64,000 bases of DNA from Promethearchaeota archaeon (GCA_019058245.1 JAHPZJ010000030.1:1-64000); one strand, 5' to 3'; shown: positions 33,688 through 40,138, numbered from the stretch's first letter. Notes: generated by a model from the letters alone, not told the origin. Numbers and translations: made by a program.

Positions 33688-34242
33688 TCAAGGAGTCCAT
33701 GAAAGCTTGATTTTAGTCCAGCCTTCTCTTTCCCATGATTTATTAAGGAAGATATAATTGGGTTTTTTGTTAATAGTAGATTCGACAAATGAAATTACCC
33801 ACCCCATTGCTATGTAATAATAATTTGACCAATCACGAGGAAGATCTATATAAGTAAATTCTATCTCTGTATCAGAGACAAATTTTGCTTTAATTTCACC
33901 AAAATTAAAAACTAGTCTGTGAAAACGCGTATATTGTGTTGTAAGTGCTTGAAGATTTCCTTTTTCAATAATAGATTTGTAAATGGTTGAAAGCCAAACT
34001 TTTGACTCGCCTAATCCCCATCCTGTTAAAGTTTTTGGATCATTTTTTGCTTCAATTAAACATAAAGCATCAAAACATTCTCTATATGCATCATAAGGAT
34101 ACCATGATCCCGCAAGAATCCTTCGATTAAGTAAATCTTTTGCTTTATCTGAGAGAATCTGGTTATATGGTCCCAATCCTTTAGGACTTGTTTTAATATT
34201 CTTTATAATCGTTACTGCCATTGATCCTTTTACTTGTTTCAA
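33688..34242 (-). CDS. 184-aa array paralog 2 (H-NOX/V4R-like)
   Basis: Same motifs; TTG start. Confidence 0.85.
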   Translation of the reverse strand: MKQVKGSMAVTIIKNIKTSPKGLGPYNQILSDKAKDLLNRRILAGSWYPYDAYRECFDALCLIEAKNDPKTLTGWGLGESKVWLSTIYKSIIEKGNLQALTTQYTRFHRLVFNFGEIKAKFVSDTEIEFTYIDLPRDWSNYYYIAMGWVISFVESTINKKPNYIFLNKSWEREGWTKIKLSWTP

Positions 34243-34497: not shown

Positions 34498-35052
34498 TTA
34501 TGAATTCCAATAGTATTTAACTATGGTCCAACCCTCGTTTTTCCATGATTTATTTAAGTATTCATAATTTACTTCTTTATCAAGACACATTCCTATAAAT
34601 ACGATTGCCCACCCTATAGCTGTATGATACCAATTTTCCCATTCTCGATCCATATTTGTATACGTAAATTTTACTTCGTTATCACAGATAAATTCTGGCA
34701 TAATTTCACCAAAATTCATAGCCCTTCTGTGAAATCGTATATATCTCTCAACTGCAGATTCGATATCTTCTTTAATAACTGAAGACTGATATATTGATGA
34801 AAATGTTCTTTTTCCTTCCATCATACCCCATTGAACTAAGATTTTTGGATCATTTTTTGCTTCTATAAAACATAAAGCATTATAACATTCTTTATAATCT
34901 TCAAAAGGATACCATGCTGCGCTTAGAATTCGTTGTTTAAGAAATTCTTTTGCTTTATCTGAAAGTAACCTGTCATATTCACTTCTTTTTTGATGATTTG
35001 CTTTAATGGACTTTACAATTGTTAATATTGTCGCTCCTTTTATTTTTTCCAA
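34498..35052 (-). CDS. 184-aa array paralog 1 (H-NOX/V4R-like)
   Basis: Same motifs; TTG start. Confidence 0.85.
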   Translation of the reverse strand: MEKIKGATILTIVKSIKANHQKRSEYDRLLSDKAKEFLKQRILSAAWYPFEDYKECYNALCFIEAKNDPKILVQWGMMEGKRTFSSIYQSSVIKEDIESAVERYIRFHRRAMNFGEIMPEFICDNEVKFTYTNMDREWENWYHTAIGWAIVFIGMCLDKEVNYEYLNKSWKNEGWTIVKYYWNS

Positions 35053-35291: not shown

Positions 35292-35876
35292 CTAAAAAGA
35301 TTTTTCTGAATATAAATTGTTTAAATGTGTTATCCATTCCATTCCAAGATTTTCTAGATGAGATATGAAATTTAATGAACTTAATTTTTTAATATCTTGA
35401 AACTCATTTTTATATTCTTCATAAAGTTCTATAAAATATTTATGTATTAAATTTTCAAACGATTTAATATGAATATATGGATTTAGGAAGAATATAACAG
35501 TAAAATTATCTAAATCAAAAATAGAATGAAATTTGATATTAGAGCCCTTAAGATTAATACAGGGCACATCTTGAATATTAATTTCTTCTGAAAATCTTTC
35601 TAAGGCACTTATAAACATTGGAATGAGTTCTATATTAAAGCATTCACTTTTTGATGGATCTTTCATATTCTTTTTAAGATAAAATTCTAAAGCTCCCTTA
35701 TGACTCTCAAATAATGCAATTGTTTTTCCTTCTTTATCTGATAAGATACACCCAATAAACGGGGGTGGAGAAAAATCATAAATACTTTTAAAACTGAAGT
35801 CCTTTTTACTCTGCTGATTGTCTAATTCTAAGAAAGCATTTAATGTCATTTTTTTATTCTCACTATCTTTATCCAA
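35292..35876 (-). CDS. Hypothetical protein, probable roadblock/longin-like fold
   Basis: GCILSDKEGKTI...LIPMFISALERFSEEI pattern (beta-beta-alpha), followed by beta strands and a helix. Confidence 0.55.
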   Translation of the reverse strand: MDKDSENKKMTLNAFLELDNQQSKKDFSFKSIYDFSPPPFIGCILSDKEGKTIALFESHKGALEFYLKKNMKDPSKSECFNIELIPMFISALERFSEEINIQDVPCINLKGSNIKFHSIFDLDNFTVIFFLNPYIHIKSFENLIHKYFIELYEEYKNEFQDIKKLSSLNFISHLENLGMEWITHLNNLYSEKSF

Positions 35877-36624: not shown

Positions 36625-36774
36625 ATAAAATCTTGCTATTTACAATTTTATCATCGCTTTTAATAAATTAAATGAAAAGTAATCATATTCATATTTCATT
36701 AAGTTTATTATATACATTTTTTTTAAGCTTTTGATTAAAAAAAGAAATAATAATCCCAAAACCCATGCAAGGTC

Positions 36775-36811
36775 GTCATTGAATGTCTCATTTTTTTCAC
36801 ATTCATTTCAT
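36775..36811 (-). promoter_or_regulatory. Eukaryote-like SECIS element in the 3' UTR of the selenoprotein gene
   Basis: 5'-AUGAA-A-UGAAUGU-[GAAAAAAAUGAG]-ACAUUCA-A-UGAC-3': AUGA/GA core, 7-bp perfect stem, A-rich loop; starts 2 nt after the stop codon. Confidence 0.8.
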
Positions 36812-36813
36812 TC

Positions 36814-37338
36814 TTATTTGGGATTTATAATATATTTATCAATCAGAATGATCATTGCACCTACAGAAGGCCTATCGGTTTTATCTCTTCCTACATATTT
36901 CCAAATTATTTTTCTGTTTTTGTCAAGGAGGAATTTGCTTGGTATTGCTTGTTTTACTTTTAGTTTTCCCCAACCTTCAGCAAACCAATACACATTATAA
37001 TCTTTAGCGATTTTTGCTCCACGATCTGAAATCATATCTATAGGAAATTTATTTTCTTCCTTGAATTTTTTTAGTAGTCCAAGAGAATCAGTAGCTATTG
37101 AAATAATCTTAATATTTCTTTTCTCAAATTCATGAAATTGCTTTGTTAAACGCTCTAATTCTTCCTTTCAGTAGCTTCACCACGTCCCCCGAAAAAAATC
37201 AATCAATACTCCATTATGAATTTTAAGTAATTCATCTAAATCCACTGGTTTTCCGTATATATCAAAAGATTTTATTAGTGGTCCTTGTGAATTCAGTGGT
37301 AATCCTTTTGGTCTTGTAGTACTATTATCAGTCGTCAT
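36814..37338 (-). CDS. Peroxiredoxin-like (AhpC/TSA, thioredoxin fold) selenoprotein with UxxU motif, 174 aa
   Basis: Continuous frame from ATG 37338: DFFRGTW-TGA-SY-TGA-KEEL, with both TGA at the CxxC positions; then IATD, FPIDMISD, AIPSKFLLD, DRP. Confidence 0.9.
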
Positions 37339-37464: not shown

Positions 37465-37989
37465 CTAGTGTGAATACTTTTCAAAAAGAATTTCTGTCAT
37501 TACATTAAAAGCTTTCTCGACATTCTCTCCTGTTTTAGAAGATAATTCTACAAAAGAAGCAAGATTGTATTTTTTTGCGGCTAATATTCCATCATCTCGC
37601 GATACTGCACGGAAATCATGCAAATCTACTTTCGAACCAATTAACATTATAGGTATTTCTCCTGCATGTTCTCTTATTACTTGAGTCCAATCAGGTAAAT
37701 GATCTAATGATGTTTGATTAGTGATATCGTATAGGAAAAATGCCCCATTTGCACCTTTACTATATTGAGAAAGTAAAAAGCGAAATCGTTCTTCTCCACC
37801 AAAATCCCATATTTGTAATTTGACTTTCTTATCCTTGAAGGAGGTGGTCTTACTATAAAAATCTACTCCAATTGTTAATTTGAGGTCTTCCATAAAATAT
37901 CCAGAGATATATCTCATAGTAAGGGATGTCTTTCCTACAGATGCATCACCAAGCATCATAATTTTAAATGTATAATCGTAATTCGTCAT
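37465..37989 (-). CDS. Rab-like small GTPase
   Basis: FKIMMLGDASVGKT, TIGVDF, KLQIWDFGGEERFR, GSKVD, SSKTG. Confidence 0.95.
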   Translation of the reverse strand: MTNYDYTFKIMMLGDASVGKTSLTMRYISGYFMEDLKLTIGVDFYSKTTSFKDKKVKLQIWDFGGEERFRFLLSQYSKGANGAFFLYDITNQTSLDHLPDWTQVIREHAGEIPIMLIGSKVDLHDFRAVSRDDGILAAKKYNLASFVELSSKTGENVEKAFNVMTEILFEKYSH

Positions 37990-38121: not shown

Positions 38122-38763
38122 TTAAATTAGTAAAATAAGGATATTAAAGCAAGAATGGGCAATTGAACAAGGAATTATAGAATATTCGAAATACACAAAT
38201 ATAAGAGAAAGTAACACTCCAAATACTAAATAGTATCCAGAATATGTAATAATTGTTGTTATAGGCACTAGAATTGGTGGAACATGATAAAGTGTAAAAA
38301 TTAGAGATGATAGAAAAATACTGAAAATTAAATTTAATTTAGTTTCGAATTTTTTAATAAGAAATCCTCTGAAAAAAGCTTCTTCACACGGTCCAATAAT
38401 AAGTATATTTAAAATTATGATGATTACCATTTGAATAATATTAGGATGAATTGGTTCTGTGCTAATAGCTCCTTTTTGACCAAGTTCGACAAAACCAGAA
38501 CCAAACAGATTTGTAATAATAATATCCTTGAAAAATATAATGATATAACTACCAAAAAAGAAAAATAATATTCCAAGACCCAATCCGGTGATTATTTTTA
38601 TTAATAAATTTTCATTCTCACGAAAACCCATATCCTTTATAATTTCTTGAAATGATCTCTTTTCCAATTTACTGAATATTAAAGCGGGAATGATTACAAA
38701 CATTAATTCCAAAAATGTTAACCCGATTAAAATCCAAGGATTTTCTCCTAATTGTATAACCAT
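38122..38763 (-). CDS. CPBP/CAAX-type intramembrane glutamic endopeptidase
   Basis: EEAFFRG, F.LYH, AHSCFN. Confidence 0.9.
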   Translation of the reverse strand: MVIQLGENPWILIGLTFLELMFVIIPALIFSKLEKRSFQEIIKDMGFRENENLLIKIITGLGLGILFFFFGSYIIIFFKDIIITNLFGSGFVELGQKGAISTEPIHPNIIQMVIIIILNILIIGPCEEAFFRGFLIKKFETKLNLIFSIFLSSLIFTLYHVPPILVPITTIITYSGYYLVFGVLLSLIFVYFEYSIIPCSIAHSCFNILILLI

Positions 38764-38857: not shown

Positions 38858-40138
38858 ATGACAATTAGGGATAAATTAATTGGATCAGAAAAGCGTTCTT
38901 TTAAGAATGTTAATCAGGACAAGAATAGTATTGATGAACTTGGTCTTACAAAAGAACAACTTCTTTTAAATGATCTTAAAACTATTGCAAAAGAATATTT
39001 AGAGATTGAAAAATTGAAAAACTCTTTTGTAGATGTCATTTTGAAAAATTTAGATAATTTAGATTTTAATGAATTCATTGATTTTCCTAAGTTTTATATT
39101 AAAGAAGCAACTTTGAAAAAAAAAGTATCCTCCGCTAACATTCAGGGATTAAATGTTGTTAGTGTAGATGGAAGTTCTGTTACGAAGAAATTTATGAATG
39201 TAGATTTTTCATTTTTAAAAGCTATTGCAGTGAAATATTATTTTCAGAAAAATCATAATGCAAACATTGTTTATTATCCAGACCTTAGCGGATTTAATAA
39301 TTATTATGTACAAGGAAATTTCTTTAATCGAGATGATACTGCTATCGAAACAAAAATATCTATTGATATGACTTTCATGGAAATCAATCTATTAAATAGA
39401 TTAATAAAAAAGACTTCTGGAATTGACATGATAATAATTGATGGTTCGATTGTTATTATGCCTATAAATTTATTATTTTCTAAAGATCTTGAAATATCAA
39501 AAAAATATGATATATTATTGAAAGAGTATCATAAATTATATCTGAATTGTAAAGAAAAAGGTATTTTATTAATAGGTTCAATTAAAGATACGAGAACATC
39601 TGCTCTTTCTCACATTTTAAGAGACACAATTCAATTATTAAAACCTAATTATTCAAAATTAACGGATTTTATCACAATAAATTATCGAAATATAATTGAA
39701 TATTTTTCAGATGTAGATCTGTTCAATCGAGTTTTAAAAAAGGCTGAAAGAACGTGTATCTTTAATTGCAAGAGAGAAATTGATAAAATTAGAGATACTG
39801 GAATAAAAAAAGAAATTCCATACTACTTTCCTTTATCTTTTTATGCATTTTATCTAAAAACAACTCATTATGATATGCCATGTAGAATTGAATTCTTTAT
39901 GGAAGAAAAACATCAATATTTTAAAGCTTCAGAAACTGCAGACTTAATTTCCTCTATCCTTTTACCAATTTCAAGTTTAAATGAACATTATGGATTACCA
40001 ATCCCTCAAATTGAAGCCCATAAAAGAGCCGTCTTTAAACCAAAAGAAATTGATTTGTTATTCAATAACTTAAATAGAACTTTGAACATGCATGGCATTA
40101 AGTTATTAGAAAAAAGAAGAAACAGAAGACCTTTCTAA
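38858..40138 (+). CDS. nurA: NurA family nuclease
   Basis: VSVDGS, E, IIDGS, GSIKD, YGLPIPQIEAH..A. Confidence 0.88.
   Translation: MTIRDKLIGSEKRSFKNVNQDKNSIDELGLTKEQLLLNDLKTIAKEYLEIEKLKNSFVDVILKNLDNLDFNEFIDFPKFYIKEATLKKKVSSANIQGLNVVSVDGSSVTKKFMNVDFSFLKAIAVKYYFQKNHNANIVYYPDLSGFNNYYVQGNFFNRDDTAIETKISIDMTFMEINLLNRLIKKTSGIDMIIIDGSIVIMPINLLFSKDLEISKKYDILLKEYHKLYLNCKEKGILLIGSIKDTRTSALSHILRDTIQLLKPNYSKLTDFITINYRNIIEYFSDVDLFNRVLKKAERTCIFNCKREIDKIRDTGIKKEIPYYFPLSFYAFYLKTTHYDMPCRIEFFMEEKHQYFKASETADLISSILLPISSLNEHYGLPIPQIEAHKRAVFKPKEIDLLFNNLNRTLNMHGIKLLEKRRNRRPF

Follow-up and report, generated by a model that had tools for sequence, protein, structure and literature searches.

The window, a stretch of 64,000 nucleotides from a Promethearchaeota archaeon, is part of contig C30 of an assembly of 3.09 Mb (31 contigs, 76% complete, 29% G+C). 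On the minus strand of the window, a reading frame (PrxL) runs from an ATG at position 37338 to a TAA at 36816-36814 and comprises 174 codons plus the stop. This frame (37338..36814) is interrupted by exactly two in-frame TGAs, at codon 54 (37179-37177) and codon 57 (37170-37168), which translation places in the context ...LIDFFRGTW-U-SY-U-KEELERL.... Throughout its 174 codons the frame is free of Cys codons, further stops and frameshifts. The start codon, both TGA positions, the length of 174 aa and the absence of Cys are all as given in the original prediction. Under translation table 11, the frame is split into a 53-aa ORF (37177..37338) and a 73-aa ORF (36814..37035), the latter being the portion that the prediction had reported as the only one displayed on the annotation track. 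Translation through both TGAs yields a product that matches the Pfam families AhpC-TSA (PF00578, 6e-23, 81.5 bits) and Redoxin (PF08534, 3e-18, 66.4 bits) over residues 22-146, an interval that spans the two TGAs. The features of the locus are the following.

36814..37338, minus strand: complete coding sequence of a PrxL.1-type, peroxiredoxin (Prx)-like selenoprotein (translation, Pfam match across the TGAs, orthologues, AlphaFold2 model with pLDDT 90)
37177..37179, minus strand: UGA codon 54, predicted to be read as selenocysteine (Sec), at the first redox-box position, equivalent to the N-terminal nucleophilic Cys of CxxC (TGA in 37/37 homologous genes; alignment)
37168..37170, minus strand: UGA codon 57, predicted to be read as Sec, at the second redox-box position, equivalent to the resolving Cys of CxxC or the peroxidatic Cys (Cp) of Prx (homologues; alignment)
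36814..37035, minus strand: 73-aa ORF of the standard code, a gene-calling artefact that represents the C-terminal fragment of the real gene (ORF list)
36776..36811, minus strand: lokiSECIS core hairpin (published description, covariation, leave-one-out covariance model)
36760..36774, minus strand: conserved side-arm hairpin, GACCU/GGGUU with a 5-nt loop (covariation, RNAalifold)
36752..36825, minus strand: whole three-helix element (minimum free energy fold, covariation, RNAalifold)

Upstream of PrxL, the window encodes a Ras-family small GTPase that lacks a C-terminal CAAX Cys (37465-37989, minus strand; Pfam Ras, 2e-47), an Rce1-like membrane protein of the CAAX-protease family (38122-38763, minus strand) and a NurA nuclease (38858-40138, plus strand). 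No functional link to PrxL is evident among its neighbours (the Ras-family GTPase, the Rce1-like protease, NurA and a methyltransferase). Three tandem ORFs of 184-194 aa (33688-34242, 34498-35052 and 35292-35876, all on the minus strand) are without a Pfam match and may constitute a small paralogous family.

The protein query was compared with 400 genomes of the phylum, with stop codons read through. PrxL homologues are present in 99 of these genomes, and the family of the window genome, represented by 134 other genomes, accounts for 86 of the 99. All full-length close homologues recovered by this query have one or two in-frame TGAs at the redox positions; the matches that are free of stops are either fragments or distant proteins. 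From 30 loci, 37 homologous genes were extracted. The first redox position is TGA in every one of them. The second is TGA in 12 genes, which share the motif FFRG[TSN]W-U-x[YF]-U, and Cys in the other 25, the UxxC paralogues, which share FFRGNW-U-[SN]H-C. Both TGAs are retained in 11 orthologues that are 68-76% identical, with one near-copy at 92%, and the alignment is conserved on either side of the TGAs. A maximum-likelihood tree, computed with the two redox positions masked, places the window gene within a clade of 11 UxxU genes (UFboot 99 / SH-aLRT 100). The UxxC paralogues, 57-66% identical to the window gene and equipped with the same SECIS architecture, form a separate clade. The remaining UxxU gene branches from within the UxxC genes, which means that the second position has switched at least twice. 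In a more distant Asgard homologue both positions are Cys (YRGGW-C-PN-C), and at still greater distance the homologues are PrxQ proteins of the ordinary kind, which have TxxC as well as the catalytic Arg. The expected occurrence of Cys or TGA at both redox positions of homologues is borne out by this series, in which the second position of the paralogues alternates only between TGA and TGC/TGT and the distant Asgard protein reads CPNC. In several congeners, a UxxC paralogue is located in tandem approximately 230 nt upstream of the UxxU gene; a UxxC copy was not found in the window's own genome with the PrxL query. The named relatives are MAGs designated 'Promethearchaeota archaeon' and include Loki_b32.

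The public records for PrxL homologues are systematically wrong. In MAG annotations, these homologues appear as 'redoxin domain-containing protein' (Lokiarchaeota/Promethearchaeota), begin downstream of the second TGA and are shortened to 104-120 aa. The full-length homologues in the databases are stored with Trp at both Sec positions because gene calling with TGA as Trp was used on short contigs.

Directly behind the PrxL stop codon, the sequence conforms to the lokiSECIS element. The core starts 2 nt past the UAA and consists, in order, of AUGA, the 5' stem strand AAUGAAUGU, the loop GAAAAAAAUGAG, the 3' stem strand ACAUUCAAU and GA. The stem spans nine positions with a single A.A mismatch. 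The loop, at 12 nt, is A-rich and ends in AG. As published, the lokiSECIS comprises AUGA, a 9-bp stem, an 11-nt loop that starts with A's and ends with (A)G, and then GA (PMC4989117); the window element thus has one extra A in the loop, and a 12-nt loop is common to 5 of the 25 other homologous elements. Two further helices accompany this core. In addition to the side arm, a basal helix is formed between the last sense codons AAUCCCAA (36825-36818) and the downstream segment UUGGGAUU (36759-36752), so that the stop codon, the SECIS core and the side arm all lie within it. In the closest relative of the window genome (G198, contig C93; 92-93% identical), the TAA stop of PrxL.1 is replaced by AGA, so that the frame stays open until the UGA contained in the AUGA core of its own SECIS. 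What looked like a frameshift in this relative is a run of 10 N in its assembly.

All three helices are supported by an alignment of the 3' regions of 26 PrxL genes. Overall, 90% of the alignment cells are paired and 13 of 22 pairs show double changes, values that were matched by none of 500 shuffles, and pairing collapses when the partner column is shifted. In the SECIS stem, compensatory double changes are observed in seven of nine pairs, and two basal positions of this stem are frequently unpaired across homologues. The side arm has 92% of its cells paired and double changes in two pairs. The basal helix, likewise paired in 92% of cells, includes double changes from C-G to U-A, observed in each of the paralogues L017 and L033. 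RNAalifold independently predicts the SECIS stem, the side arm and the basal helix. A leave-one-out covariance model, built from the 25 other elements with the window's own sequence excluded, returns 36830-36744 as the only significant match in the 64 kb (95.1 bits, E 5.5e-21), with the next match at E 0.11. Rfam yields no SECIS family match, either in the window at the gathering threshold or in the 3' region at E up to 10, in agreement with the published observation that standard SECIS tools miss the lokiSECIS. A weak match to a C/D-box snoRNA (25 bits, E 0.2) was taken as a chance k-turn-like similarity.

This architecture raises the tentative suggestion, doubtful though it is at present, that the Sec-insertion signal exceeds the published hairpin and is a three-helix junction, with a functional basal helix built from the last three sense codons and a conserved side arm. 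The codons in AAUCCCAA encode the conserved C-terminal N-P-K/N. If the basal helix is functional, a ribosome that arrives at the stop codon has to open the lower end of the SECIS; termination would then be coupled to competence for Sec insertion, and the C-terminus of the protein would be constrained at the RNA level. Such coupling is not described in Mariotti et al. 2016 (PMC4989117) or Huang et al. 2024 (PMC11227280), both of which describe the core and generic 'lower stems', and so a three-helix architecture with a basal helix from the last codons of the ORF, as predicted here, would go slightly beyond these two reports.

The AlphaFold2 model of the read-through product (pLDDT 90, pTM 0.87) has a thioredoxin-type fold, in which the helix of residues 55-66 begins at the redox box. 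The closest solved folds are PrxQ/BCP peroxiredoxins (PDB 2cx3 and 3hjp; the latter, Bcp4, with TM 0.82), with ResA at rank 23, and the best sequence match among solved structures is again PrxQ/BCP (2e-13), with ResA at 2e-10. In the alignments, U54 falls opposite the first Cys of the ResA motif GTWCKPC and U57 opposite the second; in PrxQ, the counterpart of U54 is the Ser/Thr of TxxC, and that of U57 is the Cp (Aeropyrum PrxQ). The resemblance to ResA/TlpA-type oxidoreductases (PDB 4nmu and 1st9) is local: GTW-C-xx-C aligns to GTW-U-SY-U, and the ResA motif PTSFLIDKDGKV, which contains the cis-Pro, aligns to PSKFLLDKNRKI of the PrxL protein, in the region P133-SKFLLDKNRKI, where P133-SKFLLDK matches the PTSFLIDK of ResA. 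ResA differs in being a membrane-anchored, extracytoplasmic protein with Cys, whereas the fold of the PrxL protein is nearer to PrxQ and its sequence contains no signal peptide or membrane segment; the PrxL protein is therefore probably cytoplasmic. PrxQ/BCP proteins differ in having PxxxT/SxxC and a catalytic Arg. In the PrxL protein, the stretch equivalent to this Prx motif is R50-G-T-W-U54-S-Y-U57, in which both the Pro and the Thr/Ser are replaced, and the position of the Aeropyrum PrxQ Arg (AKRAV) is occupied by Q130 (KQAI), which is nearly invariant. The original prediction had taken F.RG.WCxxC as a signature of AhpC/TSA-like proteins, an assignment that has to be corrected: true AhpC/TSA proteins have PxxxTxxC and the catalytic Arg, both of which are missing from the PrxL protein, and the signature instead belongs to a 'Prx-like'/ResA-type CxxC subgroup. 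The best NCBIfam match is to NF040769, 'SelL-related redox protein', followed by ResA. The NF040769 score of 55.4 bits falls below the cut-off of 120, and the match therefore indicates resemblance to SelL-related proteins and not membership.

On this evidence, the chemistry of the protein is somewhat better explained, at a little above even odds, by a CxxC thiol-disulfide oxidoreductase than by a peroxiredoxin, with U54 as the attacking residue, U57 as the resolving residue and a diselenide as the product. The main competitor retains the gene and its decoding as described and proposes a genuine peroxidase, in which either U57 would be peroxidatic or U54 would act in a GPx-like manner, with the partner Sec as the resolving residue. 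Selenols react quickly with peroxides, AhpC/TSA is the best Pfam match, and both the nearest solved folds and the alignment of U57 with the Cp of Aeropyrum PrxQ are in agreement with such an activity. However, all three active-site residues of Prx (Pro, Thr and Arg) are replaced, and the local motifs and NCBIfam matches point to ResA-type and SelL-related proteins. Furthermore, the Sec that is invariant in the family is at the first position, that of the exposed nucleophile of CxxC oxidoreductases, and not at the peroxidatic position of Prx. A peroxidase is thus the less probable of the two functions, although it keeps an appreciable share of the likelihood.

The decoding of the two UGAs depends on the Sec machinery of the host, most of which is encoded in this assembly. 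SepSecS is located on contig C14 (TIGR03531, 473 bits against a cut-off of 225), and aSelB lies 5 kb from it (TIGR00475, 236 bits, and Pfam PF21440 aSelB_III). A KTI12/PSTK-like kinase on contig C31 has TIGR03574 as its best family and matches it over the full length, with a score (143 bits) below the cut-off of 290.5. Searches of the whole genome with the Rfam tRNA-Sec model (RF01852) and ARAGORN yielded ordinary tRNAs and, apart from these, only a spurious 'SeC' call whose intron would be 2.9 kb long. The tRNA-Sec(UCA) gene was instead located by blastn with a congener tRNA-Sec, at C14:82523-82676 on the plus strand, approximately 40 nt upstream of SepSecS and 5 kb from aSelB. The gene is split by two introns, one in the D-loop (34 nt) and one in the T-loop (30 nt), and is missed by Rfam and ARAGORN because of them. 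Once spliced, the 90-mer is identical at 85 of 89 positions to an intronless congener tRNA-Sec, has a compensatory GGAG/CUCC T-stem, and is recognized by ARAGORN as tRNA-SeC(UCA) with a 9/4 fold and a 7-bp D-stem. A clear tRNA-Sec is present in 16 of 25 congeners. A T-arm intron in the Loki tRNA-Sec has been published (PMC5330540); no mention of the second intron was found alongside it.

One component, SelD, was not found in the 76%-complete assembly, either above the cut-off of TIGR00476 or by tblastx with the congener SelD region. All 25 congeners searched have a Sec-containing SelD, encoded by one or two (tandem) genes each. Given this distribution and the completeness of the assembly, the missing SelD is most likely an assembly gap. 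The absence could otherwise be taken to mean that tRNA-Sec and the SECIS do decode the UGAs, with Cys or another residue inserted for want of selenophosphate synthetase. This reading is very improbable, given the incomplete assembly and the SelD genes of the congeners, and the retention of SepSecS, aSelB and tRNA-Sec without a selenium donor is unlikely. The host, though its MAG is incomplete, most probably uses selenocysteine. The statement of the original prediction that Lokiarchaeia decode Sec is accordingly supported for this genome, in which SepSecS, aSelB, the intron-split tRNA-Sec and a PSTK-like kinase are present; of the machinery that it had named, tRNA-Sec, SepSecS, aSelB and, with a score below cut-off, the kinase were recovered, and SelD was not.

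The stored Trp residues of the full-length database homologues could also be read as evidence of a reassigned TGA that encodes a standard amino acid, Trp or Gly (codes 4/25), which would turn the product into a WxxW protein. Across the genome, however, TGA ends 222 of 1580 long ORFs (14%), the median distance to the next in-frame stop is 6 codons, and this distance is the same as that after TAA or TAG. TGA is therefore an ordinary stop genome-wide, and a reassigned code is excluded. In addition, the SepSecS, aSelB and PSTK genes have no internal TGA, the in-frame TGAs occur at Cys-equivalent redox positions with SECIS elements downstream, and the only tRNA found with a UCA anticodon is tRNA-Sec. 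The chance that reassignment accounts for the locus is accordingly negligible, and the Trp residues are a gene-caller artefact.

Equally negligible is the proposal of a decaying redoxin pseudogene that has acquired two nonsense mutations: the standard code does break the frame twice, and public annotations offer only C-terminal fragments, but the same two TGAs persist in the 11 orthologues despite their divergence, both flanks are conserved with no other lesions, the SECIS 3' of the stop is conserved and covaries, the homologue alignment shows no relaxed selection upstream of codon 54, and nonsense mutations restricted to the two redox positions across ~100 genomes are not expected. A reading as two separate ORFs was also considered and rejected. 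The original prediction had reached U54 and U57 by arguing that two independent nonsense mutations at these positions were implausible, and that argument is now joined by the retention of the TGAs in orthologues, the SECIS 3' of the stop and the Sec machinery.

The locus is best explained, with a probability of about 92%, as an intact selenoprotein gene, an orthologue of Lokiarchaeal PrxL.1 in an Asgard (Lokiarchaeia/Promethearchaeia-type) genome, with the following proposed decoding, product and chemistry. In the mRNA, the eukaryote-like lokiSECIS directly behind the UAA stop would recruit aSelB loaded with Sec-tRNA-Sec, which would decode both UGA54 and UGA57, three codons apart. The predicted decoding of these two codons as Sec is established at the level of sequence and comparative evidence. 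The product would be a cytoplasmic, Cys-free protein with a PrxQ/BCP-like thioredoxin fold and a W-U-S-Y-U box at the N-terminus of helix α1. In this protein, the exposed selenolate of U54 would attack the substrate, and U57 would resolve the intermediate, which would produce an intramolecular diselenide.

Genes of this type have been described. Mariotti et al. (2016, Mol Biol Evol 33:2441; PMC4989117) reported two Prx-like selenoprotein genes in Lokiarchaeota, PrxL.1, with Sec at both redox positions, and PrxL.2, with one Sec at the first. Both lack further Cys beyond the redox box and have a lokiSECIS 3' of the stop codon, and a diselenide was proposed for PrxL.1 by analogy with SelL (PMC4989117). 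A later survey by Huang et al. (2024; PMC11227280) put the share of Sec-using Asgard archaea that have Prx-like selenoproteins at 43%; most of these genes are accompanied by type I eSECIS-like elements. The window gene has each of the features reported for PrxL.1: the AhpC/TSA-Redoxin fold domain, Sec at both redox positions, no other Cys and a lokiSECIS near, and indeed directly after, the stop. It also resides in an Asgard host with archaeal/eukaryote-type Sec machinery, from which SelD was not recovered. It differs in the apical loop, which is 12 nt here and 11 nt in the report. From these shared features, compared by description, we infer orthology to the published PrxL.1 gene. PrxL.2 is a family member that shares this SECIS architecture, but its second position is Cys (FFRGNW-U-SH-C). 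Outside the archaea, SelL of aquatic metazoans is reported to have a UxxU box in a Prx-like thioredoxin fold (Shchedrina et al. 2007, cited in PMC4989117). By that account, SelL shares with the PrxL protein the UxxU box, the fold, two UGAs three codons apart, a single SECIS and a proposed diselenide, and differs in being a eukaryotic protein with a eukaryotic SECIS. The original prediction had emphasized the rarity of UxxU and its association with SelL. The UxxU box is real here; it is not new in this family, in which Loki PrxL.1 was described in 2016 (PMC4989117).

In a motif scan of the genome, lokiSECIS elements were also located behind other genes that contain UGA, among them two HdrA-VhuD pairs. 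These HdrA-VhuD (FrhD) pairs, at C17:88657-91174 (plus strand) and C28:246479-243996 (minus strand), have two Sec codons per HdrA and two to three per VhuD. Each pair has one lokiSECIS, behind VhuD, which ends in a GA tail in one pair and in an AA tail in the second; this arrangement has been published for Lokiarchaeota. Two paralogous proteins of approximately 155 aa are encoded at C10:60564-60103 and C10:58778-58314, both on the minus strand, and contain adjacent Sec-Sec residues (HAD-UU-ADV and SGC-UU-EKV). A perfect lokiSECIS lies behind each, neither has a Pfam match, and the second gene runs in frame into the AUGA of its own SECIS (C10:58290-58256). This family occurs in 117 of 135 family genomes, always with at least two in-frame TGAs. 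Finally, three ORFs for small membrane proteins of 71-86 aa, at C13:146441-146181 (minus strand), C27:41629-41880 (plus strand) and C27:42118-42333 (plus strand), have one in-frame UGA each (GG-U-GC, VVS-U-GE and LMA-U-GT), no significant Pfam match, and their own lokiSECIS 12-61 nt past the stop. The C10, C13 and C27 families are absent from the seven Asgard families in the 2024 survey (PMC11227280).

The window gene itself represents known biology and not a discovery: its type, its SECIS and the idea of a diselenide were already published in 2016, and the Asgard survey followed in 2024. The locus illustrates cleanly how standard gene callers shorten a selenoprotein gene, and it adds one member to the rare class of proteins that are predicted to form a diselenide.
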